NCBI GenBank assembly: GCA_965214705.1
Contig: CBDCCI010000002.1
Coordinates: 2,432,001-2,496,000 of the forward strand
DNA length: 64,000 bases
Direction of reading: 5' to 3'
Source of the DNA: Alphaproteobacteria bacterium
GTDB lineage: Bacteria; Pseudomonadota; Alphaproteobacteria; UBA828
The notes under the pieces are model-generated. The model did not search any database. It was not told where the DNA came from and saw only the letters and a list, made by a program, of their open reading frames with translations. Both the position numbers and the translations under genes were made by a program. Shown piece by piece: positions 36,873 through 59,541 of this stretch (position 1 is its first letter; the number at the start of each line of letters is the position of its first letter).

Positions 36873-39238
36873 TCGATCACCACGAGAACATCCCGCTCCA
36901 GAACGGAGCCATCCTCGCCAAGCACGGAAATCGACGTGCTGCCCGCCGTCTGACCTAGGACGTACAGCACAGTGGGAGAGAGAAGCTGCACGTCTGCGAT
37001 CTCGGGGGAAGCAGCCGCCACTGCCTTTGCGGGACTGTCGAGATGCCACCGACGACTCTTTCCCAGCACGACAATCCACTCGTCATGGGGGAGCGCATCA
37101 CCTGGAGGATACTCAGGCGGCTGGGACTCCAAATTGGGTAGATCTTCCGCGGACGCTAGCGATAGCGAGGGAGCGGCGGAATAGGGCGCGGCACCGCCGG
37201 TCCAGGCATGTGCTGTCGGCCGTTCGTTCGGACTCATCCCCGACGGCGTGGAAGCAAAGGAAGCGAAAGGCGTATCGGAAGTCCGAACTCGATCAGGGGC
37301 GGGTTCTGCGAGGGCCACACTCTCGTACCACCCCGCCTGGCGCTCTCCTTCACCGTTGAGCCGTCCAGGCCCATCCTCAGGCAGTAACGCGGCGGTCAGG
37401 AGAGCTGCGTCCGATTCGGAGGTTGGATCGGACGCGAACGCAGTCGCGCTCGACGTGGACGAGGCGCGGTCGGGTGAAAATGCCGGCTGCAGGAACGCTC
37501 CTTCGGACCATGAAACGAGACCGAGGTTGGCAGCCGAGAGAGTCATGTTCCTGGGCCACGCGGCTCCTTGTTCCCAAACGTGGCCGCGCGACGAAGGTGT
37601 AGCTCCGGAATAGAATGCGTCTACCAAGGATGCCGCGCCGGCTCTGCGCGCGAATTCGGACGCCGTCGCGTTCGTGCCTGACTGCAGCATCGTGAGGTCG
37701 AGCAAGAAGATGGACTGCAGGAATGTCGCATGTGACAAGGAGACGTGACCGAAATCGGCAGCACCGAAGATCAGTCGTTGGGACAACGCGGCTCCCGGCT
37801 CCCACCAGCCGTTAGGCGGCGCGGATGAGCGGCTGGAAGTGGACGGGACGGGACGGGATGGCGCATGTCCTTCGGTCATTGACTGGGACGCCGCAGGCGT
37901 CGCTCTTCGCGTCAACCTGATGGGATTGGACGGAAGAGCAGGATGATCGAATGATGCATCCGACAAGGTGTCGACGTTGAAGTCGGCAGCCGCCACGGTC
38001 GCTCTCTCCAACCATGCAGAATCCGGCTCCTGCATGCCGCTCATCAATAAGGGTGCAACACCGGTAGAGGACGGGTTGGGAACGGGGACCGCGTCGGATT
38101 CGGTCGTTGGTGCCGGCGCCGACGCTGTCGCGGCGGTCGGCGTTGTGGCGTCTGCGGTCGAAAGGAACAGGGGAGTCGGAGACCCCTCGGGCGGCGCGGT
38201 GAAGTCGGGGTCGGTGGCGCCGGAGACGGCCATGATCGCGGACCGAGCGGCATAAGGATTCGGAACGCCCTGCTGCGATGCAAACGAGGCTTTTGGCGAA
38301 GGCGGGTTCGGGGCGCCCGCCTCCCCGCCCCCGGATGTGGATTGGGGCCGAGGCGCTCCGGCGTAATCGGGAACGGCGAATACTGCGTCCGCCGCGGGAA
38401 GAACGTCCCAGCCAGCCTCGCCGGTGAGGCGGAGCGTCAGCCCCAACGTACCTCCGAGTGCAATACCTGTTGAGGGCCCGAGCCCTTTGCTCGCGATCAA
38501 TGGCGGCGGGTCGAGGGGAGGCCACTCCAGCAGGAGTCTGGTATCGACCCGGCGCGGCGGCATTGACTGTCGGCGGGCAGTGTCCACAAGGTTCTGCAAT
38601 GCGCGTGAGTCGTCTTCCTCCCAGTAGGACGCGTCATATCGTTCGTAGATACCTGCTGCCGCGTCGATCCGACCGGAAGCGATCAGCATACGAACGAAGT
38701 TGGCTGCGATCCGGGGATGTGCCGAGGGATGGCGGAGCGCTTCGGTGTAGTGGGTTTCGGCGGTCTCGTAGTCGGCTTCGAGTACGGCGGCGACGGCGAG
38801 GCCGTTTTCGATCCACATGACTGACGAGGGATCTTGTACGAGCGCTCGCGCATCCAGCAGGTGTTGACGCGCCGCTTGGGTATCGCCGAGAGCGAGCGCC
38901 GTCCGCCCGGCACCGAGGAGCGCCTCTCCCCTGGTAGCGGGTGAGGCCTGCGCCAGGTCCGCAGCCTGGAGAAACTGTCGGCGCGCCGCGTTGAAGTCAT
39001 GGTCGTGCAGGAAGATGTAGCCCAGTCCCAGGACAGGTTCAGGCGCATCGTCGAATCGCTCTGCAAGCGAAAGGTAGAGCCTCCGGGCAACGGCCGGCTG
39101 TCCCGCCGCGAGCGCGGCGGAAGCGACGGACAGATGGTCTCGAAGCAGCTCCCTGGCGCCGGGCCTGTCGGCCGGCTCGGAGACGCCGGAGCAGGCGGCG
39201 ACAAAAATAAGCGTGGCAAGCGCGGCGGTTGCGGGCAT
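34542..39238 (-). pseudogene. cpaC: N-terminal piece of the giant secretin: lipoprotein signal, TadD-like TPR, long linker, CpaC pilus-N domain, 12+ BON-like repeats
   Basis: Lipobox FVAAC; TPR motifs (PVLGLG, ALLGAG, ENGLAV); LGKSRRWHLDSPAKAVAAASPEIADV...GSTSISV; start codon uncertain. Confidence 0.85.
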
Positions 39239-39362
39239 GCGTCTTGCGGAATTCAAGCGCAATACCGAACTTTTGAATCGGGACGCCAAACTTCGATGAT
39301 GAGCAGTTCGGACGTTCAAAATCTTCGCCTCCCGTGCCCGCGGTGAACCGGCGGCCGGAAAC

Positions 39363-40451
39363 TCAGGCGCAATCCACATGCCGAAACGAATTCGCGGAGA
39401 ATCGTGATCTCCAGGCATCGAACAGGGCATCGCGAGAACCGCTGAAGCGCGCCTGAATGGTCACGTACTCCTGCTGTGTTGTCGTGTTCGCGGCGGATTG
39501 AACGGAATATCCGAGCCTCTTCAGGCTGGTCATCCGCCGCTGCGCATTCGCTCTGCTCCTGTACACACCGAGCGAGACCGCGTTTCTCAGTTCACCTCCG
39601 AGGATGACCGCGACGTCGCGGATTCCCCGGCTCTTGAGTTCGCGCAATGTCCGAAGGGCACTCTTGCGGCTGTCCAAGGGCGGGATGTAGACCCGGTGGC
39701 TCTCGATCGTCTCACGCGGCTCCGCGGCTATCGCGAGAATCTCCGCCCCTCGCGAGCGCAGCCATTGCTTGGCGTCCTCAACGTCGTCGCGAGTCTCGAA
39801 CTCGCCCACCGACACACAGGCGGCATCGGCAACGGCCAAGGCGGCAGTCGGGCTCTGACGCTCTTCGCGTGCGAACCGGTCTGTAGCCCGTGCACCGGCC
39901 TCGCCCATCTCGGGCGCCTCTGAAACGACCGGTTCCGAGGTGCGCGGAATGGATGAGCGGACCGGCTCGCTGCGCTCTCGGACTATGGTCGTGCCGAAGC
40001 CGAGTTCCCGGGCGCGGGCGTAGGCACCGCGCGCCAGCTTCACGTAGATGTCGCCCAGGTTCTGGTATCCGATGGCGTCGGTCTGGCGTTCGAGTGCACC
40101 GAGGAGGACCCCGCGCGCGTCCTCGAGCCGGCCCTCTTGAACGTAGACGACGGCCAAATTGTTGTAGGCCTCGAACAAGTCGGGAAAGTCCCGCACGAGT
40201 GAGCGGAAGGTGTCGATCGCCTCGTCCCGATCTCCCTCGTGCAGGCGTAAGATCCCGTGCAGAAGCCGTGCATGGGAACTGCCGGGCTCTCGCTCAAGCA
40301 GCGGATCAAGGGTGAGACGTGCTTCCCGATAGCGTTCTTCGTCTGCGAGCGAGATCGCGCGGTCGAGCGTGTCCTCGGACAGCGCGGCGTTGGACGAGAG
40401 AGTCGCCGCTGACATCGCCAGCGCCAGCAGGACCGCGCCGATCTTCGTCAT
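39363..40451 (-). CDS. Secreted TPR + SPOR-domain protein
   Basis: Signal peptide; TPR (EAYNNLAVVY, YQNLGDIY); C-terminal NAVSLGVYRSRANAQRR SPOR-like region. Confidence 0.8.
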   Translation of the reverse strand: MTKIGAVLLALAMSAATLSSNAALSEDTLDRAISLADEERYREARLTLDPLLEREPGSSHARLLHGILRLHEGDRDEAIDTFRSLVRDFPDLFEAYNNLAVVYVQEGRLEDARGVLLGALERQTDAIGYQNLGDIYVKLARGAYARARELGFGTTIVRERSEPVRSSIPRTSEPVVSEAPEMGEAGARATDRFAREERQSPTAALAVADAACVSVGEFETRDDVEDAKQWLRSRGAEILAIAAEPRETIESHRVYIPPLDSRKSALRTLRELKSRGIRDVAVILGGELRNAVSLGVYRSRANAQRRMTSLKRLGYSVQSAANTTTQQEYVTIQARFSGSRDALFDAWRSRFSANSFRHVDCA

Positions 40452-41495: not shown

Positions 41496-42737
41496 TCACG
41501 GTTTCCCCCTGTGGGTCGGCGGCAGCGCCGGCGGGCCGCGCGTCGAGCGGGGCTCATGGCGGCGGCGGATTTCGCGGACGAGGCGCATGACGCCGCCGCA
41601 GTGGGGGCAGGCCACGGGCGCGGTGCCGATCTCGGGCTCTTCGTCGGGCTCGGCCCGAGCGCCGTCCACGCTTCCCTCGGGGGCGGCGCAGCCGAGGGCG
41701 CCGAGAGCCTGGCGTGCTCTCTCCAGCGTGCTGGCGCGGCAGCCGTTGGCGAGGATGCCGAAGTAGCGAATGCGGTGCATGCCGTCCGGCAGGACGTGCC
41801 TCAGGAAGCGGCGGATGAACTCGTCGGCGCTCACGGTGGCGATGCCGTAGCGCGGCTTTCTCTGCCCCGGCGCCTTGGGCTTTCGGTGGCGGAAGGAGAC
41901 CGTCTCGCCGTCGAAGGAGACGATGCGGCTGTCGGAGATGGCGATCCTGTGCGTGTAGTGCGAGAGGTACCGGAAGACCTGCTCAGGCCCGCGGAAGGGC
42001 CGCTTGGCGTAGACCACCCAGTCCCTGGCCCGGGCGGCGGCAAGCGTGGCGTGGAACTCGCCGGGATTGGCGAGGTGGGCGAGGGTGCCGTGGAACTCCA
42101 GGTCCCCCCGGCCGTGGGCGCGGGCGAGCTCCTCGAGGAAGAGGCGGCGGAACAGGCTGCCGAGGACCTTGACGGGGGCGAGGAAGGTGGTGCTCCCCGT
42201 CTTCCACTCGCCACTGTCTACGTCGAAGCCCGCGTTGGGCACGACCACGTGCAGGTGCGGGTGGAAGCGGAGCTTCTGATCCCAGGTATGGAGGACCGCG
42301 GTGCCGCCGATGCGCATGCCGCCGTGGCGGGGATCGGCGGCGATGGTGCGCAGGGTCTCGGCGACGGCCCGGAAGAGGATGTCGAACACCACCCTGCGGT
42401 TGCAGAAGGCAATGGCGGCAACCTCCTTGGGCAGGGTGAAGACCACATGGAAGTAGGGCACCGGCAGGATGTCCCCGGCGCGCTCCTCGCTCCAGAGGTT
42501 GGCGGCGAGACCCTGGCAGGTGGGGCAGTGGCGGTTGCGGCAGGAGTTGAAGAGCGGATGCTCGCGCCCGCAGCCCTCGCAGGCGTACATGTGGCCGCCG
42601 AGCACGGCGGTGCGGCACGCCTCGATGGCGCCCATGACCTTGAGCCGGGCGGCGTCGATGCGCCCTTTGTGGCGCTCACGGAAAGCGGCGCCGGCGCGGC
42701 GGAAGATCTCCGCCACGCCCGCGCGTTCGGCCTCCAC
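41496..42737 (-). CDS. IS91-family HUH transposase (copy 2)
   Basis: Two amino-acid differences from 268-1509. Confidence 0.92.
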   Translation of the reverse strand: MEAERAGVAEIFRRAGAAFRERHKGRIDAARLKVMGAIEACRTAVLGGHMYACEGCGREHPLFNSCRNRHCPTCQGLAANLWSEERAGDILPVPYFHVVFTLPKEVAAIAFCNRRVVFDILFRAVAETLRTIAADPRHGGMRIGGTAVLHTWDQKLRFHPHLHVVVPNAGFDVDSGEWKTGSTTFLAPVKVLGSLFRRLFLEELARAHGRGDLEFHGTLAHLANPGEFHATLAAARARDWVVYAKRPFRGPEQVFRYLSHYTHRIAISDSRIVSFDGETVSFRHRKPKAPGQRKPRYGIATVSADEFIRRFLRHVLPDGMHRIRYFGILANGCRASTLERARQALGALGCAAPEGSVDGARAEPDEEPEIGTAPVACPHCGGVMRLVREIRRRHEPRSTRGPPALPPTHRGKP

Positions 42738-42743
42738 GCGCCG

Positions 42744-43622
42744 TCAGTTGCGCAACGCTGCGAAGCCTGAGATCGGGTGGTCGAGGCCCTCGAACATCTT
42801 GCCGGTGACGCGGGCGTAGTGACGGGTCGTGTTCGCGCTTCGATGGCCGAGCATGTCCCGGATCACCTCGATATCGCCGCCGCGCTCGAGGAGATGGGTC
42901 GCCGCCGAATGGCGCAGGCAATGGAAGGTGTAGCTGCGGTCGAGCTCGGCAATGTCGCGCGCCCTCCTGAAGGCGGCCTGCAAGGTCTCCGTTGCGATGG
43001 GCCTGTCGAGCGAGACGCCGTAGAAGAGCCAGCTCGTCGGACGCGGCCAGATGTTCCTGTAGTAGACGCGCAAGTAGTGGATGACGATGTCCGGCAACGG
43101 TGCCATTCTCTCGGTGCCGCCTTTGCCGGAGGGGATGTGCAGCAGCTTCTTCTCCGACAGGATGTCGCCGACCTTGATGGCCAAGGTCTCGGAGATGCGG
43201 AGCCCGCCGCCATAGCCGGTGACAATGGCAGCACGGTGGCGGAGGTCGGGTGTCGCAAGGATGAGGTGCTCGACCTCCTGCTCCGACATGTAGCGCGGCA
43301 GCTTGCCGGGCTTCTTGCGGGAGCGCAGGCCGGCGACATGGTCAGGCCAGCCGAGTGTGTCGATGTAGAGGAAGTTCAGCGCGGCGAAGGAGACGTTGGT
43401 CGTGCCCGGACTGAGCCCCTTGTCGATCCGCCCCAGGTACCACTGGCGCACCTGCTCGGCGTCGAGCTCGTCCGGCGAGGCGTCGTAGTACCTGGCCAGG
43501 TTCTTGATCTCGCAGATGTAGGCCTTGGACGTGCTCGCGGCCAGATTGGCGATGCGGAGCTGCTCCTCCATGCGCTGGCGAAGAGGGGTGACGGTGTTCG
43601 TGTCGCACGCGGTCCCGGTCAT
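42744..43622 (-). CDS. Tyrosine recombinase (copy 2)
   Basis: Same protein as 1516-2394. Confidence 0.92.
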   Translation of the reverse strand: MTGTACDTNTVTPLRQRMEEQLRIANLAASTSKAYICEIKNLARYYDASPDELDAEQVRQWYLGRIDKGLSPGTTNVSFAALNFLYIDTLGWPDHVAGLRSRKKPGKLPRYMSEQEVEHLILATPDLRHRAAIVTGYGGGLRISETLAIKVGDILSEKKLLHIPSGKGGTERMAPLPDIVIHYLRVYYRNIWPRPTSWLFYGVSLDRPIATETLQAAFRRARDIAELDRSYTFHCLRHSAATHLLERGGDIEVIRDMLGHRSANTTRHYARVTGKMFEGLDHPISGFAALRN

Positions 43623-43851
43623 TATCGATCTCCCTGGATCGCGACGGCGCGCCGCCGGACCGATCCGGCGACGGTCCGTCGCAGGGGTCGATACTAACCA
43701 CTGGTGATCGGGAGGCTGCTGGGGATCCGCCACCCGACGGGCGGAGCGCCACTGACGCAACCGGGAAGCGAACGCACAGAACAAACGGCACCCGCGACGC
43801 CTCGGAAATGAATGAACTCTACGCCGCTAACTCCGCGTAGCGGCTTCGTTC

Positions 43852-45090
43852 AAATGCGGATGCCAGTTCTTCGAGCCAGCGGGGGGCGCGCTGCTTCGCC
43901 ATGACGGTGCTGATTTCGGCGCCGAGCGCATCGGCATCGTCGGCGCCGCGCAGGCGCGACAGCGCCTGGGTGAATCCGATGCCGTAGGACTCCCTCATCC
44001 GCCGCCGCACGGCGTCGGAGATACGGTTGGCAGCGACCTTGAGCTCGGTCAGTTCGTTGTCCCGAACGAGCGCGTCGGGACGGGTGAATTGCAGAGTGCC
44101 GGTGTCCTCGTTCGCAGCCCGGATGCGCGCCTCAAGCGCGTAGAAGTCTGCTGGGGACGCCTCCGCGCTCCTCGCCTCGGGCTCCGGGACGGTCGCCGTT
44201 CGGGTGCCGGCGGGCTTCTTTGCAGCATTCTCCGGAACACTCTCTTCCTGTTCTTCTTCGACGACGACGATCTCGGCGTGTTCGGCCAGGGCCCGCAGCC
44301 AGCGGATTTCATTGGGATCGAAGGCGTGCAGGCGATAGCTGGTCGCGGGCGTGTAGTAGCGCCGCAGCGGCGCACGCACGCCGCGTCCAGCTCGCAGGCG
44401 GATCGCGCTGAGCGACGCGCGCGTCTTCAAGCTCTGCCCGTTCCAGGCCCGCTCGAGCGCGTTTGCCACGCCTGCAGTCGTGCGGCGCTCCCGCACGTCT
44501 TCGAAATGGGATTGGAGATGCTCGAAGATCCTGACGGCGCAGAGGACCACAAGGCTCGATTCCGCGCCGGCCGCCGCCTTGTGCCTCTCGCCGGCCTGGG
44601 TCCAGCGCTCGGCGGTTTCGTGCACCGTCGTCGCCAACTCGAGAGCGAGGATCACGTATCCGGCAACCGACTCGGGACGAATGCCGACATGAAGCTCGCC
44701 CTTCGAGCCGTTCCATACGCGGTAGCACTCGCCTTCCGCCGCGACGGCTACGCTTCGACTCCAGGCGCCCGCAGAGACGACATTCTCAGCACCGGCAGCG
44801 AGGTCGGAGGCCGCGATCCCGACATCTCCGATCAGCCGGTTCCCGAGGACTTCGACAGGCTCAGGCAGGCGTCGGTGCGCACGGGCCGCTTCGCCGAGCA
44901 TGGCCCCCGTCTCCGGACGCTCGAGCGCGGTCCAATCGAGCGGCGCGTCTGCGTCGAGCCTGTCTCTGACCGCATTCGGGAGCGCCTTCACGGCGCGGGT
45001 GAACAGTTTGTCGGTATTCACACTGAGACTCCTTGCGACTGGTATGGAAAGCTCCGACTGGGAAGGTCCAGGGTCCCGCCTTTCTGTCAT
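43852..45090 (-). pseudogene. 5' part of an interrupted ~652-aa hypothetical gene in the Tad operon
   Basis: 413 open codons; the apparent tail ERSRYAELAA derives from the element. Confidence 0.8.
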
Positions 45091-45129
45091 CGCCGGCTTC
45101 CTAGCCCCTGAGAGTTGTGGACGAATGGA

Positions 45130-46077
45130 TTAGGGAGTCGTTTCGAGCTCCGCGTTTTCGAATGCGGCCGGCCCTGCGTCCGCCTCGAAGGCCACGCCGG
45201 TGACTTCCGTTCCCCGGATGACACGCACTGTCGTGTGCAGCTCGGGTTCAGGCGCCTCGGGTGGTGCTGGCTGCAGAGACAGCAAGGTTCGTGCGTCGAC
45301 GGGGCCGGTCCGTACCGTCTGCGCGCCGCCTGCAGCGAGCGGTCGAACGGCCAGAGCGAGCTCGCCTTCGAACTCTCCGAGCGCGAGGAGTCCCGTCTGC
45401 TCGGGCAACACCTCCAGGGTGGCCGTGACGATTTCGGTGCGCTCGATTTCCCGGCCGTCTTCCCCCGGCGCGGCGGTGCTTCCGATGCTTCTGTCGACCG
45501 CGAGCACCCGCACGTCCTCGAGGATCGTCCGCGAGAGCACGTTTTGCAGACCGTCCGAACGCGATTTCGCCGTGAGGACGACATCCACGCGATCGCCGGG
45601 ATCAACGAGGCCGGAGTGGCGCGTGCCGGCGCCTAGACGGATGGTCATGGCCCGCATGCCGGGCTTGAGCACGGCTGCGAGGAATCCTCTCTGGCGCGGC
45701 CCAACCAGCGCCCGCCAGGTCACCGGTGCGGCGTGGGCGAGCGCCTCGCGCACGACATAGCCGTACGGCACCTGGGCCGCGTCCGAGCTGTCCAAGAGGA
45801 TGTGGCTGCGGCGGACCGAATCCTCTTCGATCCCGAGTTCCGTCAGGTCCTCCTCTCGGAGCAGGGTGCCGACCGGCAAGTCGCGGGCGGCCGCAAGCAC
45901 CATGCGAAGCTCGGGCTCCTCCACAGGCGGCGGCTCCGGCTGGGCGGCAACGGCGGCCTGAGTCTCGACCTGCTCGGGCTGGCCGGCGGGCAGCATGTAG
46001 CGCATCACGAACACGCCGACGATCATCGGAACAATGCCCAACAGGGCCACGATGATCACGGTGCGGTATCGTCTCAT
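45130..46077 (-). CDS. cpaB: Flp pilus assembly protein CpaB/RcpC
   Basis: SAF domain VLAAARDLPVGTLL; LKPGMRAMTI, GLVDPGDRVDVVL, TILEDVRVLAVD, TATLEV. Confidence 0.93.
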   Translation of the reverse strand: MRRYRTVIIVALLGIVPMIVGVFVMRYMLPAGQPEQVETQAAVAAQPEPPPVEEPELRMVLAAARDLPVGTLLREEDLTELGIEEDSVRRSHILLDSSDAAQVPYGYVVREALAHAAPVTWRALVGPRQRGFLAAVLKPGMRAMTIRLGAGTRHSGLVDPGDRVDVVLTAKSRSDGLQNVLSRTILEDVRVLAVDRSIGSTAAPGEDGREIERTEIVTATLEVLPEQTGLLALGEFEGELALAVRPLAAGGAQTVRTGPVDARTLLSLQPAPPEAPEPELHTTVRVIRGTEVTGVAFEADAGPAAFENAELETTP

Positions 46078-46095
46078 CGAGTCAGCTCCCCCGGT

Positions 46096-46569
46096 TCAAA
46101 TGCCATCGGACAGCGCACGCAGTGTCACGACGATGATGGCGGGCGGTGCGATCGCGACGGCGAAGGGCAGTTCCGAACGCATGCGCCGTGTGCGTTCGAA
46201 AGGCAGCAGAGCGACCAAGCACAAGGCGAGCGCGAATGCGGCCAGACTGCATAGGAAGATTCCCAGCCAAGCCAGCGTCGGCCCGATCCAGAGGCCGGCG
46301 ACAGCAAGAAGCTTGGCGTCGCCTGCACCGAAACGCCCCGTGAGATAGAGCGCGAAGCCCGCGACCAGGATGAGTGCTCCAACGGCGAAGTGCTGCCACA
46401 GGGATCCCGCCGGGCCGGCGGCGCCGGTCGCCGCGTAGATCGCGAAGAACGCGAGCAGCATCAGGGGAACCTCGTTGGGGATTCGTCGTCGGCGGACATC
46501 GGTCGCAACGCTGGCGGCGAACAGCCCGCAGGCCGCCGTCTCCGCGACATACACGCCTAGGCTCTCCAT
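46096..46569 (-). CDS. cpaA: Prepilin peptidase A24 (CpaA/TadV)
   Basis: TDVRRRRIPN, FGAGDAKLL, LPFAVAI; multiple TM helices. Confidence 0.93.
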   Translation of the reverse strand: MESLGVYVAETAACGLFAASVATDVRRRRIPNEVPLMLLAFFAIYAATGAAGPAGSLWQHFAVGALILVAGFALYLTGRFGAGDAKLLAVAGLWIGPTLAWLGIFLCSLAAFALALCLVALLPFERTRRMRSELPFAVAIAPPAIIVVTLRALSDGI

Positions 46570-46612
46570 TCTCGGCCACTCCTGCTCGAGTCCGCATGCC
46601 CGCATAGCCCTC

Positions 46613-48352
46613 TTAGGGATTGGGTACGCCGGCCGGCAGCGTGATCTGCGCCACGGTTCCCTGGCCGGGCAACGAGTTGATCTTGATGACGCCTTCGTGC
46701 CTCTTGACGAGATAGCCGGCGAGCGTGAGACCGATCCCCAGCGCCTCCTCCCTGGTCGTGTAGAAGGGCTGGAAGATGTTCATGCGCTTTTCGGCGGGAA
46801 TACCGTTTCCGTTGTCGATGACGGTGATGAGGATCTCGTCGTCTTTGCGCGTCGAATCGACTCGGACCATGCCCTTCCTCTCGCCCAGGTCGCGCACGGC
46901 AAGCACGGAGTTGTCGATGATCTTGGTCAGCATGAGGCGCAACTCGGCCCTCGACGCCAGGATCTCGGGGATGTCACCCAGCCTCTTCGTGATCAGCCTG
47001 TTGGCCTCGGGCCCGCATTCCTCTATGGCCTCTTCGATGCAGGCGTTGATGTCGGTCATGCTGCGGTTGACATGGTTCCGCGGCATCGCGCTCACGGACT
47101 CGAGCCGTCTGGCCAAATCGGAAATGCCCTTCGCCTCCTGGCGGACGCTGGATGAAATCGCCGACAACGCTGCCATCTCCTCGTCGAGATCGATGCCGTC
47201 GTGCACCTCGGCGACGGTGTCGCCGTTGTCGAGCGCGTTCTGCAGGTGCTGCCGGGTCTGTCCCAGATAGTCCATGCGGGCATCGATCTGATCCGCCGAG
47301 GCGGCCAGGCTGCCGGCGGCGCACTTGACCACGAACCCGTTGATTGTCGCCTTCTCCAGATCGGCTTCGGCGCTCGTCGGCGGCGAGGCCTCGGCCTGTC
47401 GGACCGCGACGGGAGCCGGGGACGGGCGGGGGCCAATGCTCGGCTGCGACGACGCCAATGGCTCCGGCGGCGGGGCGGCGGCGGCGGTTCCGGCGGCGGC
47501 CGCGTCGGTCCCGCCCCGCCGTCTCTGGTGCAATGCAAGCAGAATCCAGAAGAGCGCCAACAGGGCGATGACGACCAGCATCCCGCGATCGTAATAGGCG
47601 AGCTGAACTTCCTTGCGGCCCAGCTCGAACCGCAAGCTGCCAGCGAGCTCGTCGGTGAGGCGGGAAATCTTGTCCGACGTGGCCTCCTCGAAGAGCTCCT
47701 CAATCGGACCCTGCCTGTTAAGAAGCACCTCCGCGTGTGAAAAGAGATTGGAGAGCGTGTTCGCCAGGGCCGGCGGATAGCGCACGCTCGTTTCGCGAAG
47801 GGATTCCATTTCGCGTCTGAGACGGGTCTGGGCTTCGTCGCTGGGTGTGACCAGATAGAGGTCCATCTCCTGGGTCAGTCCTGAGATGTCCCGCGCCAGT
47901 TGCTGGTCGCCCAGCTGCTCGGCCTGCTGCACCGCGTTCGCGGCCGCCAGGGGCAGATAGCGGGTCGAATTGCGCACCACCGCGTAGCCGGTCTTGAAGC
48001 GCTCGACCCGCTCCTCCTTCGCATCGATGGCGCTGATGTAAGCGTTGATGGAGTTGGCGAGTCGGTCAGGAAGATCGGGAATGCTGCGGGCGGTCTCGGA
48101 CAGATCCGTCTTGAGACGCGCCATGCGGGGAATGAACGCGGCCAGCGAATCGAAGTCCGCGAGAGGATCCGACTTGACCCGCGAGAGCTCGATGCTCCAG
48201 TCCGAGGAGAGCCGCTGGATCTGCTGGACCGTGCCGATGGAGCTGCGGTAGTGCCGCTCGCCGCCGTCGTTCGCCATCAGGTACAGGACGCCGGCCGCCG
48301 CCAACAGGATGACGGTCGCGACGGCACCGACAATCAGTGCGCCAGGTTTCAT
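46613..48352 (-). CDS. Membrane sensor with DAHL-like periplasmic domain and HATPase domain, H-box degenerate
   Basis: Two TM segments around KEERVERFKTGYAVVRNSTRYLP; N, G1 (DNGNGI), F and G2 (GIGL) boxes present; no HE/HD H-box; ATGA overlap with the peroxidase gene. Confidence 0.8.
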   Translation of the reverse strand: MKPGALIVGAVATVILLAAAGVLYLMANDGGERHYRSSIGTVQQIQRLSSDWSIELSRVKSDPLADFDSLAAFIPRMARLKTDLSETARSIPDLPDRLANSINAYISAIDAKEERVERFKTGYAVVRNSTRYLPLAAANAVQQAEQLGDQQLARDISGLTQEMDLYLVTPSDEAQTRLRREMESLRETSVRYPPALANTLSNLFSHAEVLLNRQGPIEELFEEATSDKISRLTDELAGSLRFELGRKEVQLAYYDRGMLVVIALLALFWILLALHQRRRGGTDAAAAGTAAAAPPPEPLASSQPSIGPRPSPAPVAVRQAEASPPTSAEADLEKATINGFVVKCAAGSLAASADQIDARMDYLGQTRQHLQNALDNGDTVAEVHDGIDLDEEMAALSAISSSVRQEAKGISDLARRLESVSAMPRNHVNRSMTDINACIEEAIEECGPEANRLITKRLGDIPEILASRAELRLMLTKIIDNSVLAVRDLGERKGMVRVDSTRKDDEILITVIDNGNGIPAEKRMNIFQPFYTTREEALGIGLTLAGYLVKRHEGVIKINSLPGQGTVAQITLPAGVPNP

Positions 48353-49317
48353 TGCGAGAAGTCCTCCGATTCGCCCGCCAGCGTCTTGATGAAGGCAACG
48401 ATGGCGTCCTTGTCTTCGTCGGGCGCCTCGCGCCCCAGCTGGAACTCGAACATCGCGTCCACGGCGTCCCGCAGGGTCTCGGCGGTTCCGTCGTGGAGGT
48501 AGGGCGCGGTGTGGGCCGCCATGCGCAGGCTGGGAACCTTGAAGGAGTGGCGATCCTCTTCGTTCCCGGTGATGTTGTAGAGACCGAGATCCGCGTCGGT
48601 TATGTCGCCCCTCTTCTTGAAATAGTCGTTCAGCACGCCGAAGACCTGAAACATGTTGCCGCCGACGTTGACTCCCTGGTGGCACGACACGCAGCCGTAG
48701 TCCTTGAACAGGGCATAGCCCTCGTTTTCCAAGGGGCTCAGGGCGTTGTCGTCGCCCTTCAGCCACTGGTCGAAGCGGCTGTTCGGGGTGATGAGGGACC
48801 TGACGAACTCGGCGATCGCGTTCTTGACGTTCTTGCGGTTGATCCCGTCCGCATAGATCGCCGCGAACTCGGCCGGATAGCCGTCGTCCTGATAGAGTTT
48901 GGCGACGACCTCCGGCCACAGATTTCCCATCTCGATGGGGCTCTGCACCGGGCCGTCGATCTGCGCGTCGAGTGTCTTGGCGCGCCCGTCCCAGAATTGC
49001 TTGAAGTTGAAACCGGCGTTGAACACCGTTGGCGAGTTGATGACCCCGGGCCTGCCGTCGATTCCGATGGAAACCTTGAGCCCGTCGTCGCCCCCGCTCG
49101 AGAGGTCGTGGCAACTCGCACAGGAGACCGTGTCGTCCTTGGAGAGCATGGTGTCGTGGAACAGCATCCTGCCGAGCTCCACCTTGCGCGGATCCACGTC
49201 GATCGCCTCCGGGATCGGCTTGATCGGCTCCTCCTCCTCCCGGCCCACCGCCAGCGCGACCGACAGACAAAGGGCGAGGCCGGCAACTGCCGGGATCAGC
49301 AGCGATCTTGCGTGCAT
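48349..49317 (-). CDS. Di-heme cytochrome c peroxidase-family protein (copy 1)
   Basis: Signal peptide; CASCH, CVSCH, INSPTVFN, QFWDGRA, PIEMG, FKVPSLR, APYLHDG. Confidence 0.92.
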   Translation of the reverse strand: MHARSLLIPAVAGLALCLSVALAVGREEEEPIKPIPEAIDVDPRKVELGRMLFHDTMLSKDDTVSCASCHDLSSGGDDGLKVSIGIDGRPGVINSPTVFNAGFNFKQFWDGRAKTLDAQIDGPVQSPIEMGNLWPEVVAKLYQDDGYPAEFAAIYADGINRKNVKNAIAEFVRSLITPNSRFDQWLKGDDNALSPLENEGYALFKDYGCVSCHQGVNVGGNMFQVFGVLNDYFKKRGDITDADLGLYNITGNEEDRHSFKVPSLRMAAHTAPYLHDGTAETLRDAVDAMFEFQLGREAPDEDKDAIVAFIKTLAGESEDFSQ

Positions 49318-49318
49318 G

Positions 49319-50320
49319 TCACTCGCCACCCGGTCCGGCTCCGATGCTGCCAAGTCCGCCCAAGGCATCCATGGCCGACAGGAACGCAGGCCCAGCGATG
49401 AGCAGCATGGTGCCGGGGACCACCAAGAGAAGCATCGGAAGGGTCATGAGCACCGGCAGCTTGGCTGACCAGGCCGTGATGCGGGCGGCGCGCTGAACAC
49501 GCTCGCCGGCTGCAATGTTCTTTATCGACTGAGTGAGGGGGGTTCCGTAGCGATCGCCCTGGATGAGGGTCATCGCGAAGTCGCGCAGGCCCTCCACGTC
49601 GCTACGCTCGTGATAGGCCTTCAGCACCGCCCGGCGGTCGGATCCGAGCCGAAGTTCGGCGTCGATGAGACGGAACTCACTCGCGAGGTTCGGCTCGATG
49701 GGCATGAGCTCGTGTGCCACCGTCGCAAGGGCCCGCTCGAAGGTAAGGCCCGATTCGAGGCACATCACCATCAAGTCGAGGGCGTCGGGGAGCGCGGCGG
49801 CCACGCGGCGCCTGCGCCGCTTCACCATCGAGCGCACCACGTACTCAGGCACGATGCCGCCGATCACGAGGCCGGCTACACCGGCGAAAGCGACGAGAGC
49901 GCCGGGAGGAACCATGGTCACGGCCGGACCGATCAGGTTGCCGACCAGCGCGCAGAGGCCGGCACCGACGAGTCCGCATACAAGCTTGCAGGACAGGAAG
50001 AGGGAGAGGGTGTCCTCCCGTGCGAACCCGGCCTGGCGCAGCGTCCGCGTGAGTTTCTCGCGCTCGCGCGCGCCGAGGGGCACCAGCATCGATGCGGCTT
50101 GAAGCAGCAGAGGGCCGAGCGCCCGTGCCGACAGGCCCGCGGTGGCTGACCTGGCGGAACCGGAAGCCGGATCCGCGCGGAGAAGCTCGTGTCGGGGTAA
50201 GGCGAGCCGCCTGTCGAGCACGCGGGTGCGCTGGGTCTCAAGGAAGATGAACGGGGCAAAGATCGCGAGGATGGCGCCGCAGGCGACGGCGGCCACGATC
50301 ACGAACATCGAGCTGACCAC
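49319..50320 (-). CDS. tadC: Tad inner-membrane platform protein TadC
   Basis: LPDALDLMVMCLESGL, RYGTPL, KLPVLMTLPM. Confidence 0.92.
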   Translation of the reverse strand: MVSSMFVIVAAVACGAILAIFAPFIFLETQRTRVLDRRLALPRHELLRADPASGSARSATAGLSARALGPLLLQAASMLVPLGAREREKLTRTLRQAGFAREDTLSLFLSCKLVCGLVGAGLCALVGNLIGPAVTMVPPGALVAFAGVAGLVIGGIVPEYVVRSMVKRRRRRVAAALPDALDLMVMCLESGLTFERALATVAHELMPIEPNLASEFRLIDAELRLGSDRRAVLKAYHERSDVEGLRDFAMTLIQGDRYGTPLTQSIKNIAAGERVQRAARITAWSAKLPVLMTLPMLLLVVPGTMLLIAGPAFLSAMDALGGLGSIGAGPGGE

Positions 50321-50336
50321 GGCCCTCTCCCCTTCG

Positions 50337-51293
50337 CTATTTCTCGCCACGGGCGCCGAGCTGGCGCGCGACGATGAGGCCGGCAACGATGAGGGCTACG
50401 CCGAGCTGCAGCAGGGTCTGGCCGTCCTCGGTGTTGAGCAGCAGGTCGACCGACTCGGGGGACGTCATGCTTTGCACCGCCAGGACCAGAGGCGGCATCA
50501 GCATCAGAACCAGGAGCGTGAGGCGGGTCTGCGCGGTGGAGGCCTTCGCCTTGAGCGCGGTCGTCCGCCTCTCGCGGAGCGTGTCCGCCAGGTTGGTGAA
50601 GGCCGTCGAGATGCTGCCGCCGGCGCGTCGTTGCAGGCGGATGACGGCAGCGAACAGCGTGAAGTCCGGGAGCCTTATCCGCTCCGAGACCATGCCGAGG
50701 GCGGTGTCGGGATCGAGGCCGGCGAGCAGCGCGTCCGTGACCTCGCGAAGGACGGGCTGCACCGGGGGCTGCGCATCCTCGGCGACACTCGAAAGCGCCT
50801 CGAGAGGAGGCAGGCCGGCCCCGGACAGGCGCACGATTTGATCGACGATCTCCGGGAATTGCTGAATGAACTGGCTCTCGAGCTTGGTCTGGAGCCGCGC
50901 CAGCGCATACCAAGCGCCGCCCACGCCGGCGAGCGCCGCGACGGGCGTGGACCACCAGCCCGACATTCCGAGCGCCCACATCCCGAGCCAAGCACCGGCG
51001 GCCGCGAGCACACCGATCGCCAACAAGCGCGGGAGGGCTCGCGGGGCATCGACCAGCGGATAGCGCGACTCGACGATCCCCAGGAGCCAGGTCAGCCGGG
51101 AACGGCGCCTAGCGGGGCGGAAAATGCTCTCCTCCGGCACGACCTCCTCGGCGGCACCGTGCCCCGAGAGCGGTGCGCCCACCCATTGGAGCCTCCGCTG
51201 GAGCGCCTTGTCCCTGCCGCCGAGCAGGAAGGCTGCGCCGAGCGGGACTGTCACGCCGGCAGCGATGAGGACGACGAGAACGAAGATGCTCAA
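50337..51293 (-). CDS. tadB: Tad inner-membrane platform protein TadB
   Basis: QFPEIVDQIVRLSGAG, QRRAGGSI, NLADTLRER; TTG start overlapping the tadA stop. Confidence 0.9.
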   Translation of the reverse strand: MSIFVLVVLIAAGVTVPLGAAFLLGGRDKALQRRLQWVGAPLSGHGAAEEVVPEESIFRPARRRSRLTWLLGIVESRYPLVDAPRALPRLLAIGVLAAAGAWLGMWALGMSGWWSTPVAALAGVGGAWYALARLQTKLESQFIQQFPEIVDQIVRLSGAGLPPLEALSSVAEDAQPPVQPVLREVTDALLAGLDPDTALGMVSERIRLPDFTLFAAVIRLQRRAGGSISTAFTNLADTLRERRTTALKAKASTAQTRLTLLVLMLMPPLVLAVQSMTSPESVDLLLNTEDGQTLLQLGVALIVAGLIVARQLGARGEK

Positions 51294-52705
51294 CTCCCGG
51301 CCTCCCCTATCCTCGGGTCTGCCTGGAGCGCGGCCAGAAGAGGCTCGCGCATGCCGACCGCGTCGACGGCATCCATCCACGAGGGTTGGCGCCCGGAGGT
51401 CTCAAAGATGTGCTGCTCGTCGCTCGTATGGCGCCGCCGCCAAAGCTCCTCGGTGGTGACGATATCGTTCTCGATCCCGACCACATTGGTGATGCTGGTC
51501 ACGCACCGGTGCCCGGAACGGAGGCGTGCGAGTTGAACGACGATATCAACCGCAGACGCGATCTGGCGCCGGAGCGCCGAAAGGGGCATGTCGGCGCCGG
51601 CCATCATCAGCATGTTCTCGAGACGGATGAGCGCATCGCGCGGGCTGTTGGCGTGCAGGGTGCACATGGAGCCCGGGTGGCCAGTGTTCATCGCCTGGAG
51701 CATCTCAGTTGCTTCGCCGCCCCTCACCTCGCCGACGATGATGCGGTCGGGACGCATCCTGAGCGTGTTCACCAGCAGATCGCGCATGGTGACCTGGCCG
51801 GTGCCTTCCGCGCTCATCGTGCGGGTCTCGAGGCGGACGACGTGCGGCTGCTGCAGCTGGAGTTCTGCCGCGTCCTCGATAGTCACCAGCCGCTCGCCGT
51901 GGTCGATTTTCTGGGACAGCGCGTTCATGAACGTGGTCTTGCCGGAGCCGGTGCCCCCGCTGATCAGGATGTTGAGCCGCGCGCGCACGCAGACGCGGAA
52001 GAGCTCGGCCATCGCCTCCGACATGGCTCGGCGTTCCGCCATGTCTTCGAGACCGATGCCCCGCATGGTGAAGCGTCGGATGGAGATTGCAGCGCCGTCG
52101 ATGGCGAGCGGCGGTATCACGATGTTGACGCGCGAACCGTCGGGCAGGCGCGCATCGACCATGGGGCTGGATTCGTCGACCCGGCGTCCGACCCAGCCGG
52201 CGATGCGCTGAGCGATGTGAAGCAGGTGCTGCTGATCCCGGAAGCGCACGTCGACGTGCTCGAGTCGGCCCCGCCGCTCGACGTAAACGCTGTCCATGCC
52301 ATTGATCAGGATGTCCGAGACCTGGCGGTCCAGGAGCAAAGGCTCTATGGGCCCCAGCCCCTTGATGTCGTGGACGAGCTGAGTGACGACCTGCTGCCGG
52401 TCCAGCGGGCTGAGGTCGGGTAGGCCCGCTTCGCCGGTCTCGAGAAAGGCGAGGAGCTGGGCCGCCAGCCTCTCGTTGTCCAGCTCCGCGATCTTGGTCA
52501 TGTCGAGAGACTTGACGATCGTGGGGTGGATCTTGGTGACAACGTCCGATATCGCGGCGCTCGTCTTAGCGTGCTGTCGGCGGGCGTCGGGCTGCTCGGG
52601 CGCGTCGGGCAACGGCTGAGGCTGAACCGCCGGGCGCGCCGCCGACGTCGGCCTCAACGAAGCGGCGGTGGGCCGGGGACGGCGACCGAAAGCGCGGGCG
52701 ACCAT
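51290..52705 (-). CDS. cpaF: Tad secretion ATPase CpaF/TadA
   Basis: GLGPIEPLL, VDARLPDGSRVN, GGTGSGKTT, TIEDAAEL, RMRPDRIIVGEVRG, NTGHPG. Confidence 0.97.
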   Translation of the reverse strand: MVARAFGRRPRPTAASLRPTSAARPAVQPQPLPDAPEQPDARRQHAKTSAAISDVVTKIHPTIVKSLDMTKIAELDNERLAAQLLAFLETGEAGLPDLSPLDRQQVVTQLVHDIKGLGPIEPLLLDRQVSDILINGMDSVYVERRGRLEHVDVRFRDQQHLLHIAQRIAGWVGRRVDESSPMVDARLPDGSRVNIVIPPLAIDGAAISIRRFTMRGIGLEDMAERRAMSEAMAELFRVCVRARLNILISGGTGSGKTTFMNALSQKIDHGERLVTIEDAAELQLQQPHVVRLETRTMSAEGTGQVTMRDLLVNTLRMRPDRIIVGEVRGGEATEMLQAMNTGHPGSMCTLHANSPRDALIRLENMLMMAGADMPLSALRRQIASAVDIVVQLARLRSGHRCVTSITNVVGIENDIVTTEELWRRRHTSDEQHIFETSGRQPSWMDAVDAVGMREPLLAALQADPRIGEAGS

Positions 52706-55682: not shown

Positions 55683-55889
55683 CTATTCTTCGATTACTAC
55701 GTCTGGCGTTTCGATGGCCGCAACATTTGTGCCCAACTGAACAATCGGTTCGTTGATGTCGTCCGAAAACGCGATCAGAACACCCCCGATGCCGGCCAGG
55801 ATGAAGCCCAGGAGAATCGAGTGCTCCAGGGCCGATACGCCCCTTCCGGTTCGCAGAAACAGACCGCAGCGCTTCAGCCATGCTCTCAT
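55683..55889 (-). CDS. flp: Flp-family pilin 2 (variant motif G/VSALEH)
   Basis: 68 aa, basic leader, G-x4-E, hydrophobic helix. Confidence 0.8.
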   Translation of the reverse strand: MRAWLKRCGLFLRTGRGVSALEHSILLGFILAGIGGVLIAFSDDINEPIVQLGTNVAAIETPDVVIEE

Positions 55890-55923
55890 GTCGATGCCCG
55901 GATCGATCGAGGAGGAGTCCCGG

Positions 55924-55969
55924 ATGCGCCGTTGGGGGCGGCGTAGCGGATGCCGCCCCCAGGCCGCAT
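55924..55969 (-). promoter_or_regulatory. Stem-loop between flp1 and flp2 (mRNA stabiliser/attenuator candidate)
   Basis: TGGGGGCGGC/GCCGCCCCCA stem with outer ATGCG/CGCAT; no U tract. Confidence 0.5.
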
Positions 55970-56007
55970 GACAGCAGTCAGCCGATTAGCTCAGAGGCCA
56001 TGAAACA

Positions 56008-56232
56008 CTATTGCCCTGCCGCCAGATTGCCTTGGCTGACGGTACCCGTGCCTTGTGTCACCTTGGTTCCGACCGCTTCGATCGCGTCTTCGACGTCCCC
56101 GGTGAAGACGGCGAGCGCCCCTCCGACTCCGGCGACGACGACGCCGACGATGATGGCGTATTCGAGAGCCGATACGGCCTCCTGGGCACGGACGAAGCGG
56201 CCGAGAAAACGCAGCATGGTCTTCAACTTCAT
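56008..56232 (-). CDS. flp: Flp-family pilin 1 (A/VSALEY)
   Basis: MKLKTMLRFLGRFVRAQEAVSALEYAIIVGVVV; GGAGG RBS. Confidence 0.9.
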   Translation of the reverse strand: MKLKTMLRFLGRFVRAQEAVSALEYAIIVGVVVAGVGGALAVFTGDVEDAIEAVGTKVTQGTGTVSQGNLAAGQ

Positions 56233-56443: not shown

Positions 56444-57286
56444 TCACGCGACCTCCGGCACCGCTGTAGGCGCGGCTGCGACGGGCGAATCGAGGGATGC
56501 CCATCGGGCAGGTGCGCCGTCCTCGGAGGCTTTGGATTCGACGGGGCTCGGCTCCGTCGACTCTTCGGAGTCCTGCGCTGGTGCGTACACCGGCTGCGCC
56601 GGCGCCTGTTCCGTGTTGCGCGCCGGCAGTGCGTGGAGACGGTAGATGTTGCCCGTGACGAACCGGCTTGTAAGCATTCCCTGGCGAAGCAGCTTGGCGC
56701 AGACCTCGACGACGACGACCACATCGTTGGGCGCGAGGACAATGCTGCGCTCTTCGCCTTGGCCCAGCAGGGAACGGCGCCAGCCTTGCTGGCTGCGGAG
56801 CTCGCACTCTTGGGCGAGGGCCGCCGTTTCCTCTGCGTCGCCGATCCGGATCGAGTCGTCTTCCCAGAGCGCCACAGCCGCCGCATCGTCACCGGGCGGC
56901 TGCTGGACCGCGGAAATTCTATAGACCAGCTCGGCGGGCGCGCTGAACTCCCTCTCGTGAAGATCGCGACCCAGCGCGGCCATCTGGTCGCCGTCTGGAG
57001 CCGTCTCGACCGATACGTAGTCCGCCATCGTGGTTGCGATGCGGGCGCCGGCGGTGCGGGCCGCCACGAGGGAATAAACGTCGAGGGCGACCGCGGCGAT
57101 GGCCAGCAACACGACCGCGCCGATCGCGAGCTCGATTCCGGCCGAGGCTCGGCCGTCGCGCGCGAACCGCGATAGAGAGGCCGGAAGTGTCCCGGCGGAG
57201 GTTGGCCCGCTGTTGCGGCTGAAGCGGCGCGCGCGCGATGGCCGAGACATCGTATACGGGGATCGCGACTTCCGAAGTCTCGTCAT
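56444..57286 (-). CDS. TadE/TadF-like pseudopilin
   Basis: FARDGRASAGIELAIGAVVLL, TMADYVS, VVVVEVC; acidic tail. Confidence 0.8.
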   Translation of the reverse strand: MTRLRKSRSPYTMSRPSRARRFSRNSGPTSAGTLPASLSRFARDGRASAGIELAIGAVVLLAIAAVALDVYSLVAARTAGARIATTMADYVSVETAPDGDQMAALGRDLHEREFSAPAELVYRISAVQQPPGDDAAAVALWEDDSIRIGDAEETAALAQECELRSQQGWRRSLLGQGEERSIVLAPNDVVVVVEVCAKLLRQGMLTSRFVTGNIYRLHALPARNTEQAPAQPVYAPAQDSEESTEPSPVESKASEDGAPARWASLDSPVAAAPTAVPEVA

Positions 57287-57288
57287 CG

Positions 57289-58101: not shown

Positions 58102-58292
58102 TCTCAACCGGTGCTACTCTAATTGTTGCGAATGGCCGGCAACTAATGACCAAGCCCGATTCCTAAAACAAGGGATTATTTCTCAATGATGACACCAAAA
58201 TCGCTGAATAATGAAGGAATTGGAACGAACCATTGCGCGAATATGATCAGTGGAGCATTCGGCAATTGTTTCTATAAAGGAAAGATAGAAAC

Positions 58293-58928: not shown

Positions 58929-59541
58929 CCACGTCCCTCGTTTAGCATCTCGACACACACATCGCCAAGTTGAGGCATGTGCGCTGCGGGGATTATCGAG
59001 CGTGCAACATTGATCTGAAGCGTTCGGATACCTTCGCGTTGAAGACACCCGGAGGTGGGGGCTACGGGCCATGTTGAAATGCCGTGTGGCGCGTCCCGAG
59101 GGCTTCCGACGCGGCGCGCAGCGCCGGAGATACTCGTCCGCGAACTCCGCCACCCATGCTGAGAAACCGAAGAATAAGGGGTCAAGCGAATCATCGCTTC
59201 TTCTGTGACCGGTTCCAAGAACCAGTTTGTGAGTCCGGTTCAAGCGGCATTATCGGTCGCGCCGACGCGTTCGCGGTTTTCACCGACCTCTGCGGCGCGC
59301 TTCAAGCGACCCTGTCTGCGCATTATTAGCGATTCGGAGCAGCAACCTCTTCATCCACAAATCACAATCTAGACATGACTTTGTGAATATAACGTGTCCT
59401 GTTGAAAACAATTTGTGCTTTTATCGTGCCTCCGCTGCCAGAGAGCGTTACTCTATTACCCTGCGCGCCCGGCTTCGGCCGGCGCTCCTGCACCGTCGCC
59501 CATGCGCGCCGGCGTCTGTCCCATTCCGCACGGATACGCCA

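Follow-up and report, generated by a model that had tools for sequence, protein, structure and literature searches.

A di-haem peroxidase homologue and a sensor lacking the phospho-acceptor histidine are encoded side by side within a Tad/Flp pilus locus of an alphaproteobacterium

What are a di-haem peroxidase-like protein and a membrane sensor doing in a locus for Tad/Flp pili? The two genes lie between tadC and cpaA in a pilus locus found on the minus strand, from approximately 58.1 kb down to approximately 17.5 kb, of a 64 000 nucleotide stretch of DNA from an alphaproteobacterium of the UBA828 lineage (GenBank assembly GCA_965214705.1, contig CBDCCI010000002.1, positions 2 432 001 to 2 496 000). 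The whole stretch is referred to here as the window and all coordinates are positions in it. The genome (7.9 Mb in 3 contigs, 98.5% complete, 8.7% contamination) contains one DAHL gene and four CCP_MauG genes. An earlier note, made from the sequence alone, had placed a di-haem protein and a His-less sensor in the core of the pilus operon and described the four genes from tadC to cpaA as tightly packed. Both statements held when Pfam domains were assigned and the junctions were read. The tadC stop codon TGA is followed by a single C and then by the ATG of the peroxidase gene at 49317 (a 1-bp gap), the peroxidase stop overlaps the sensor start in the ATGA at 48349–48352, and the cpaA ATG is found 7 bases past the sensor stop. 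Contigs from DNA sequencing runs of two different studies match 45100–50400 without a difference over the listed pieces, and the peroxidase and sensor frames are therefore not assembly errors.

The peroxidase-like protein matched CCP_MauG (PF03150) with 197.6 bits, against a cut-off of 25.6, and contains two CxxCH motifs only (C66–H70 and C209–H213). Solved classical cytochrome c peroxidases (CCPs) from Nitrosomonas (1iqc), Shewanella (3o5c) and Pseudomonas (1eb7) matched at E values of 1e-74 to 1e-58, and Trp109, Gln119, Glu129 and Met289 align with the corresponding residues of the solved enzymes. The distal loop is different. Classical enzymes have a loop His in SIGH(K/H)W (SIGHKWQQG in 1iqc, SIGHHWQEG in 3o5c), whereas the loop reads VSIGIDG here and VSVGIDG in a second, 72% identical copy of the gene in the same locus, neither with a distal His. 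The second haem motif, CHNGPAVGG in the classical enzymes, is CHQGxNVGGNMFQ in the peroxidases encoded beside DAHL sensors. The S[IV]GIDG loop and the retained Trp, Gln, Glu and Met motifs had both been pointed out in the earlier note, and both were borne out in these comparisons. None of 30 DAHL-linked peroxidases had a His in the distal column, although in one (L098) there is a His in the next column; Trp109 and Met289 did not vary, and conservation of Gln119 and Glu129 was at least 90%. The protein thus has the profile and haem-site residues of the di-haem CCPs and lacks the distal His of their classical subgroup.

The closest solved relative was 9qdt_A ('Probable cytochrome c peroxidase', E 3e-90), in which the loop reads SIGVGG, also without a distal His, and the Trp, Gln, Glu and Met are the same. 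When 45 is added to the 9qdt positions aligned with H70, W109, Q119 and E129, the numbers are those of H211, W250, Q260 and E270, residues named for Escherichia coli YhjA in a published study (PMC10301912). Judging from these matching numbers alone, 9qdt would be YhjA; a literature search with '9QDT' found nothing. The same paper describes OH-/His coordination of the P haem of YhjA, substrate binding in the oxidised state with no reductive activation, and an AlphaFold2 model in which the P haem has no distal residue (PMC10301912).

On the basis of these alignments, the core of the window's protein is of the YhjA, or 'non-classical', kind. It differs from YhjA in being encoded with a DAHL sensor and in lacking the transmembrane helix and the N-terminal third-haem domain of YhjA/QPO. 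It begins 27 residues ahead of the region aligned to residue 124 of 9qdt, and has a Sec-type leader (judged by eye). The strongest NCBIfam matches were MbnH (173 bits) and MauG (143 bits), and secreted substrates are encoded next door, as would suit a protein-modifying oxidase of the MauG/MbnH type acting on the pilin or the secretin, with the sensor simply regulating the operon. We consider this very improbable, as both matches fall far under the respective cut-offs of 363 and 444 bits, solved peroxidases matched at E values of 3e-90 to 1e-58 compared with 1e-24 for MauG, and the Met ligand of the peroxidases is kept where MauG has Tyr. The same peroxidase clade is also found with DAHL proteins at loci in which the surrounding 10 kb showed no Tad gene.

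The sensor matched DAHL over residues 35–240, between two membrane helices (95.8 bits, cut-off 38), and HATPase_c over residues 469–574 (68.5 bits, cut-off 26.4); HisKA was not found by the Pfam scan. No NCBIfam model covered the sensor or the peroxidase above its cut-off, and the NifL model matched the C-terminal part of the sensor with 61 bits, below its cut-off. In an AlphaFold2 model with a mean predicted local distance difference test (pLDDT) score of 80.5 and a predicted template modelling (pTM) score of 0.42, an all-helical periplasmic domain between the membrane helices is followed by a disordered linker. Helices 327–376 and 389–421 are then predicted to form a hairpin like that of the dimerization and histidine phosphotransfer (DHp) domain, ahead of an alpha/beta ATPase domain. 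The resulting layout is a first transmembrane helix (TM1), DAHL (approximately 28–254), a second helix (TM2), the linker (281–326), the DHp-like hairpin (327–421) and HATPase_c (431–573). Using Foldseek, the cytoplasmic part of the model matched the DHp and catalytic (CA) domains of ZraS, CckA and HK853 at E values of 3e-12 to 1e-9, and also those of YycG and of the pseudo-kinase DivL (4q20).

The sensor therefore has the HATPase_c domain with its boxes and the predicted DHp hairpin of a class I histidine kinase, and lacks the phospho-acceptor. The H-box region reads KCAAGSLAASADQI, with Ala in the position of the H-box His, and helix 1, aligned to DAHL kinases, reads CAAGSLAASADQI, again with Ala at the His position. 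Five other DAHL proteins, which are those that Pfam leaves without HisKA, read AAGVAHEINTP, AGFSHEINTP, AAGVAHEVNTP (in two of them) and NVLHNVGN at the matching place of helix 1. The stretch from TM2 to the ATPase domain contained no conserved His, either in 20 homologues of the alphaproteobacterial type or in 21 homologues with Alphaproteobacteria, Gammaproteobacteria and Binatia titles. Across the latter 21, there is no variation in the N, G1, F and G2 boxes (N481, D513, N514, G515, G517, F530, G539 and G541). A wider search scored 8000 candidates, of which 652 passed at E 0.001, and among the 120 homologues listed HisKA (PF00512) was present in none and HATPase_c in 119.

A tree of 51 DAHL domains placed the 21 His-less ones in a single clade (support 1.0) on a stem of 1.66 substitutions per site, with a short DAHL kinase that retains a His as its sister. 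The single clade, its long stem and the invariant ATP boxes therefore reflect one loss event followed by selection, and not local decay. As far as the alignments and the tree allow, the sensor is a histidine-kinase-type protein without a phospho-acceptor His, and the loss is family-wide. The kept ATP boxes and the absent H-box His reported in the earlier note were both recovered, and the functional His that it had allowed for did not align at the H-box. DivL and NifL, which signal by protein contact with no autophosphorylation, similarly combine DHp and CA domains with a missing phospho-acceptor and kept nucleotide binding. In sequence, the relation to both is limited to the common kinase fold, and DivL has Tyr at the site that is Ala here; sensing in the window's protein is predicted to be periplasmic, through a partner protein.

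The partner suggested by gene order is the peroxidase. In a set of 79 related loci (out of 91 confirmed among 276 pattern matches), the peroxidase gene was found directly upstream of the sensor gene, on the same strand, in 78; the exception (L055) begins inside the sensor gene. Twenty-five of the 78 share the window's overlap of peroxidase stop and sensor start. The earlier note had allowed that the arrangement might be confined to this genome; it recurs, however, in Tad loci of Alphaproteobacteria, Gammaproteobacteria and Binatia. In Alphaproteobacteria and some Gammaproteobacteria the order is tadZ-cpaF-tadB-tadC-peroxidase-sensor-(x)-cpaA-cpaB-p423-TPR/SPOR-secretin, in Binatia TPR-peroxidase-sensor-secretin-lipoprotein-tadZ-cpaF-tadB-tadC, and in some Pseudomonadales peroxidase-sensor-x-cpaA-cpaB-secretin-tadZ. 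Within 10 kb of the pair, one or more Tad genes were present in 54 of the 79 loci, and in 45 of the 60 that have at least 8 kb on both sides; 37 of these 60 have at least three. The link to Tad is thus frequent but not fixed. Across phyla the peroxidases are 68–84% identical, similar to CpaF, while TadB and TadC fall to 31–43%.

The same pairing was found outside this subfamily. Of 401 genomes sampled from the phylum, 74 contain DAHL (63 above the cut-off), and a peroxidase gene was directly upstream in 29 of the 30 best DAHL loci, only 177 bases being available upstream of the DAHL match in the other (L104). Twenty-two of these 30 DAHL proteins carry HisKA and one carries GGDEF; in five more there is an H-box His that Pfam did not detect, and the remaining two are truncated ahead of the output domain. 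Since the pairing is the same and the outputs differ, the peroxidase and DAHL form a conserved unit, of which the Tad-linked His-less form is one branch. The canonical DAHL kinases and cyclases share the periplasmic domain and the upstream peroxidase gene; they have PAS/GAF with HisKA and an H-box His, or GGDEF, whereas the His-less clade has no PAS. The earlier note had stated that such peroxidase genes are often found beside DAHL sensors, and the counts agree. Neither DAHL-peroxidase pairs nor a sensor built into Tad operons was found in print in a literature search that did not reach most subscription journals, and the terms 'DAHL domain' and 'PF19443' retrieved just an alignment-methods paper.

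Do the two proteins touch? The co-folding proposed in the earlier note was run with the mature peroxidase, DAHL residues 28–254 and two haems, and gave a score of 0.90, compared with 0.07 for the best of three controls. In calibration, 58 of 80 solved complexes scored as high, as did 2 of 110 mismatched pairs, counts that hold only roughly here, as this model had its own alignments and riding haems, unlike the calibration. The runs share at least 96% of contacts and the pLDDT of the partners was at least 89. On the DAHL side the interface consists of the ADFDSLAAFIPR stretch, the ERFKTGYAVVRNSxRYLP helix and residues 198–209. Eleven of its 28 residues are invariant across three phyla, among them D66, D68, E117, R118, K120, R127, N128, R131 and H206, compared with 14 of 199 elsewhere (Fisher p 2e-5), and mean identity is 0.82 compared with 0.50 elsewhere; interface conservation is in part what such models read out of an alignment. 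On the peroxidase side the interface is the C-terminal domain around the second CxxCH, including the clade-specific CHQG...GGNMFQ stretch; invariant residues are weakly enriched on this side (9 of 30, compared with 45 of 267 elsewhere, p 0.07). We take this domain to be the electron-transfer haem domain, the donor docking site in classical enzymes. Binding of the peroxidase to the DAHL domain is supported by a model only.

These results also bear on a simpler explanation, namely that the peroxidase detoxifies periplasmic H2O2 and is co-expressed with the pilus, next to a His-less sensor that is a decaying, functionless remnant. In its favour, the haem-site residues are conserved (catalytic Gln and Glu, the Trp between the haems and the Met ligand), and the locus here is full of insertions. 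A remnant is difficult to reconcile with a frame of approximately 580 codons that is open in 21 homologues from three phyla, all translated whole and aligned, and with the invariant ATP boxes and the conserved DAHL face. The adjacency in 78/79 and 29/30 loci and the co-fold point to a joint function, and the peroxidase has no evident electron-input module. We regard plain detoxification as improbable.

We slightly favour the reading in which the di-haem protein is a periplasmic co-sensor of the DAHL sensor, and the output goes to the Tad machine without ordinary phosphotransfer. The first part of it, that the peroxidase is a co-sensor of DAHL, is very probable. The di-haem protein would then be more than a detoxifying enzyme. 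Its peroxidatic haem, with no distal protein ligand, would bind H2O2 or another small oxidant with no prior reductive activation, and the membrane anchor and third-haem domain that supply YhjA with quinol electrons are absent from it. The C-terminal domain would dock on the conserved face of the all-helical DAHL domain, and changes in haem oxidation or ligand state would be relayed through the membrane to the DHp-CA transmitter. In most DAHL proteins the transmitter is an ordinary histidine kinase or diguanylate cyclase; in this clade the phospho-acceptor was lost once (His to Ala) with ATP binding kept, which argues for an output other than His-to-Asp phosphotransfer. Gene order and its conservation, the loss of the His, the kept ATP boxes and the predicted fold are observations, from which we infer a signal (H2O2 or redox), a non-phosphotransfer output and a Tad target.

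The most likely output would be a nucleotide-dependent protein–protein contact, in the manner of DivL and NifL, with a Tad component that shares the operon. That the His-less transmitter works in this way, with no phosphorylation of any kind, seems to us a little short of an even call. The obvious candidate targets would be the receiver-like domains of the two CpaE/TadZ proteins, in both of which, by eye, the third strand is followed by an Asp and a Lys-Pro motif is kept. Residues 22–127 of the shorter protein, TadZ2, match the N-terminal receiver-like domain of CpaE (4n0p, E 4.2e-7). The 910-aa protein, for which there was no Pfam match, has a long N-terminal region followed by a receiver-like domain and a ParA-like domain; the N-terminal extension, approximately 530 residues, is acidic, rich in Ala, Ser and Asp, and without a family match.

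Invariant ATP boxes across three phyla would fit catalysis as well as binding, and the DHp hairpin is kept in the predicted model. The transmitter could then still be an active kinase on another substrate, either a Ser, Thr or Tyr of a Tad protein, in the manner of HATPase-type protein kinases such as SpoIIAB/RsbW, or, acting in trans, the His on a partner kinase or on a phosphotransfer protein. Three complete HisKA hybrid kinases are encoded in the same window; the neighbour scan of related loci used other proteins as queries. However, no Ser, Thr, Tyr or His stands out as conserved in the DHp region of the clade, no STAS or HPt gene was found among the locus proteins scanned against Pfam, and the sole STAS-domain open reading frame (ORF) found in the window is far upstream (6938–7471). 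We consider an active kinase unlikely, though less so than detoxification.

Several observations weigh against a co-sensor that governs the Tad machine. The catalytic Gln and Glu are kept, which is compatible with plain peroxidase activity. Helix 1 of the DHp region, where a receiver would be expected to dock, shows little conservation within the clade, and some Pseudomonadales have a shortened version. The pair is found without Tad genes within 10 kb in 15 of the 60 full-flank loci, all titled Gammaproteobacteria or Pseudomonadales, and in each of five Tad-less loci checked the sole CpaF homologue (54–57% identical) is elsewhere in the genome. The secretin gene is broken in this genome, and the module may here have no functioning machine to govern. 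Finally, a third gene follows the sensor gene in 40 of the 79 relatives (L009–L083) and might encode the true partner.

This third gene is absent from the window and is of two unrelated kinds. A single family was considered and rejected, the identity between the two being 15–18%. The alphaproteobacterial kind is a membrane protein that matches dCache_1 weakly and ends in a HAMP-like tail, and the kind found in Pseudomonadales is a membrane-anchored coiled-coil protein. In the closest relatives (L006) the sensor gene is followed by one for a 1112-aa He_PIG/Ig-repeat protein.

How complete is the pilus locus itself? As in the Caulobacter cpa and Aggregatibacter tad loci, genes for the Flp prepilin, the prepilin peptidase (cpaA), CpaB, the secretin, TadZ/CpaE, CpaF, TadB, TadC and a tetratricopeptide repeat (TPR) protein were identified (Table 1). 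The Pfam Flp_Fap profile found no prepilin in the whole genome at E 0.1, nor did a regular expression, and both prepilins (55683–56232) were recovered by homology to pilins of related loci. In the second, His replaces the Tyr of the GxxxxEY motif. The locus differs from the described ones in having the peroxidase and the His-less sensor as extra conserved genes, together with p423, the TPR-SPOR protein, a second TadZ and a lipoprotein, and in a secretin with TPR and many BON repeats. Past the secretin gene the order is p317, an inserted transposase gene, the second peroxidase copy, p387, the lipoprotein gene and TadZ2.

Not all essential genes are intact. The secretin gene is in three pieces, the first two parted by an IS66 element and the second and third by approximately 4.4 kb of mobile DNA (approximately 26520–30910) that contains an rve transposase gene and an AAA_25 gene; two more insertions in the locus fall between genes. 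With the secretin gene broken by two insertions, the pilus itself may be dead, and it is probably not exported in this organism. The related loci are uninterrupted over the parts that were read. The earlier note had called this arrangement, with its giant secretin, the best candidate for an undescribed system; the two insertions in the secretin gene, which it had not noticed, count against this in the present genome. Unbroken, the secretin gene would be very long, encoding TPR, a pilus N-terminal domain and more than a dozen BON repeats of 64 aa.

Table 1. Features of the pilus locus, in the order of the minus strand
Feature	Position	Strand	Basis or remark
TadE-like gene	57289–58107	-	hydrophobic N-terminal motif alone, judged by eye
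TadE-like gene, second	56444–57349	-	hydrophobic N-terminal motif alone, judged by eye
Flp-type prepilin 1, approximately 74 aa, AVSALEY	56008–56232	-	tblastn E 6.9e-14; start codon picked by eye
Flp-type prepilin 2, 68 aa, GVSALEH	55683–55889	-	tblastn with related-locus pilins, E 1.7e-10
CpaE/TadZ-like, 910 aa	52708–55440	-	weak CpaE-homologue match; resembles TadZ2 plus tadZ of related loci
cpaF/tadA secretion ATPase	51290–52705	-	T2SSE 223 bits; TadA-family match
tadB	50337–51380	-	T2SSF
tadC	49319–50386	-	T2SSF; stop 1 bp ahead of peroxidase start
Di-haem peroxidase-like protein, 322 aa, Sec-type leader	48349–49317	-	CCP_MauG
Membrane sensor, 579 aa	46613–48352	-	DAHL and HATPase_c
cpaA/tadV prepilin peptidase	46096–46605	-	Peptidase_A24 59 bits
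cpaB/rcpC	45130–46077	-	RcpC 92.8 bits; TIGR03177 168 bits, above cut-off
p423, 423 aa, no known family	43819–45090	-	conserved; after cpaB in alphaproteobacterial loci; no match in Pfam and NCBIfam scans
Mobile insertion: IS91-type Y2 transposase and tyrosine recombinase	41496–43784	-	between p423 and TPR-SPOR genes
TPR-SPOR protein	39363–40451	-	Pfam; synteny with related loci
Secretin gene piece 1: TPR, pilus N-terminal domain, BON repeats	34538–39430	-	ends at IS66 boundary; seven scoring BON stretches
IS66 element within secretin gene	31789–34542	+	25-nt inverted ends at 31789–31813 and 34518–34542
Secretin gene piece 2: four to five BON repeats	approximately 30892–31790	-	
Secretin gene piece 3: final BON repeats and Secretin domain	25323–26513	-	
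p317, helical-repeat protein	23949–24902		flanks second peroxidase copy
Second peroxidase copy	20764–22047	-	homology spans 20773–21651; no DAHL partner
p387, p317 paralogue, helical-repeat protein	19421–20584		flanks second peroxidase copy
Lipoprotein gene, 143 aa	18676–19107		precedes short TadZ
TadZ2: second, short TadZ/CpaE, 380 aa	17488–18630	-	

The second peroxidase copy, p317, p387, the lipoprotein gene and the short TadZ gene lie in a region (14000–26000) with a G+C content of 0.54–0.61, compared with 0.65–0.70 elsewhere. The p317 and p387 proteins are paralogous secreted helical-repeat proteins of no family, and p317 was rejected as a DAHL-like protein (hhalign probability 0.2%). Proteins of this type are encoded near the peroxidase-sensor pair in eight related loci (L022, L023, L065, L066, L069, L076, L078 and L080), in one of which (L023) the order is sensor-p317-peroxidase-p317-p317.

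Elsewhere in the window, the pair of IS91-type Y2 transposase and tyrosine recombinase genes is duplicated, one copy being at 268–2598 and the other inside the Tad locus. Two adjoining ORFs at 3981–4874 match positions 55–117 and 121–232 of the Druantia DruA profile, as expected if a stop codon or frameshift had interrupted a DruA-like gene. Single-chain two-component proteins, three paralogues with the layout GAF-PAS-HisKA-HATPase_c-receiver-winged-helix, are encoded at 8309–10705 (plus strand), 10986–13475 (minus strand) and 59233–61908 (plus strand), adjoined by LysR genes; in the last of them the DNA-binding domain is truncated.

The stretch itself or close relatives of it are present in sequencing runs of 12 studies, several labelled sponge metagenome (shares 0.36–0.61) and one labelled coral metagenome, and a sponge-labelled run (X9) gave contigs at 90–99% likeness. 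Short contigs at the same 90–99% likeness from a metatranscriptome run (X20) covered 28 of 30 bins of 45100–50400, including the sensor/cpaA junction; they come from relatives, DNA carry-over is possible, and they were not counted as proof of transcription or co-transcription. The uncovered parts carry no information.

Each part of the module belongs to a known family, and sensors with accessory proteins and pseudo-kinases are known kinds. TorS-TorT and LuxQ-LuxP are sensors that read a separate binding protein, and H-NOX and NosP are haem sensor proteins found beside kinases or cyclases. The pair described here resembles them in that a small sensor protein is encoded beside a kinase or cyclase and control would be by contact. 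It differs in the partner, a periplasmic di-haem peroxidase homologue, and no described sensor with such a partner was found in the literature search. A broader reading, which we offer tentatively and hold to be rather doubtful, is that YhjA-like peroxidases without an electron-input module are obligate periplasmic co-receptors of all DAHL sensors. They would form a widespread, undescribed family of haem-based oxidant or redox sensors, a periplasmic counterpart of H-NOX/NosP. One branch would have lost its His once and been captured as a built-in checkpoint, free of phosphotransfer, of a variant of the Tad/Flp pilus. Gene transfer would then have carried this variant between unrelated bacteria, and related copies are found in runs labelled sponge metagenome.

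Should the pair function in the proposed way, it would give a function to DAHL, a Pfam domain without literature, and a signalling role to a peroxidase family known just as enzymes. It would also explain the sensing of periplasmic oxidants by many proteobacterial kinases and cyclases; DAHL is present in 74 of the 401 genomes. The pair is small, partly soluble and approximately 70% identical across phyla, which makes binding and spectroscopy tractable. The His-less branch would be a natural case of a kinase turned into a nucleotide-binding switch within a pilus operon and, for the assembly of Tad/Flp pili, for which we know of no built-in sensor, would supply a direct input from the environment.

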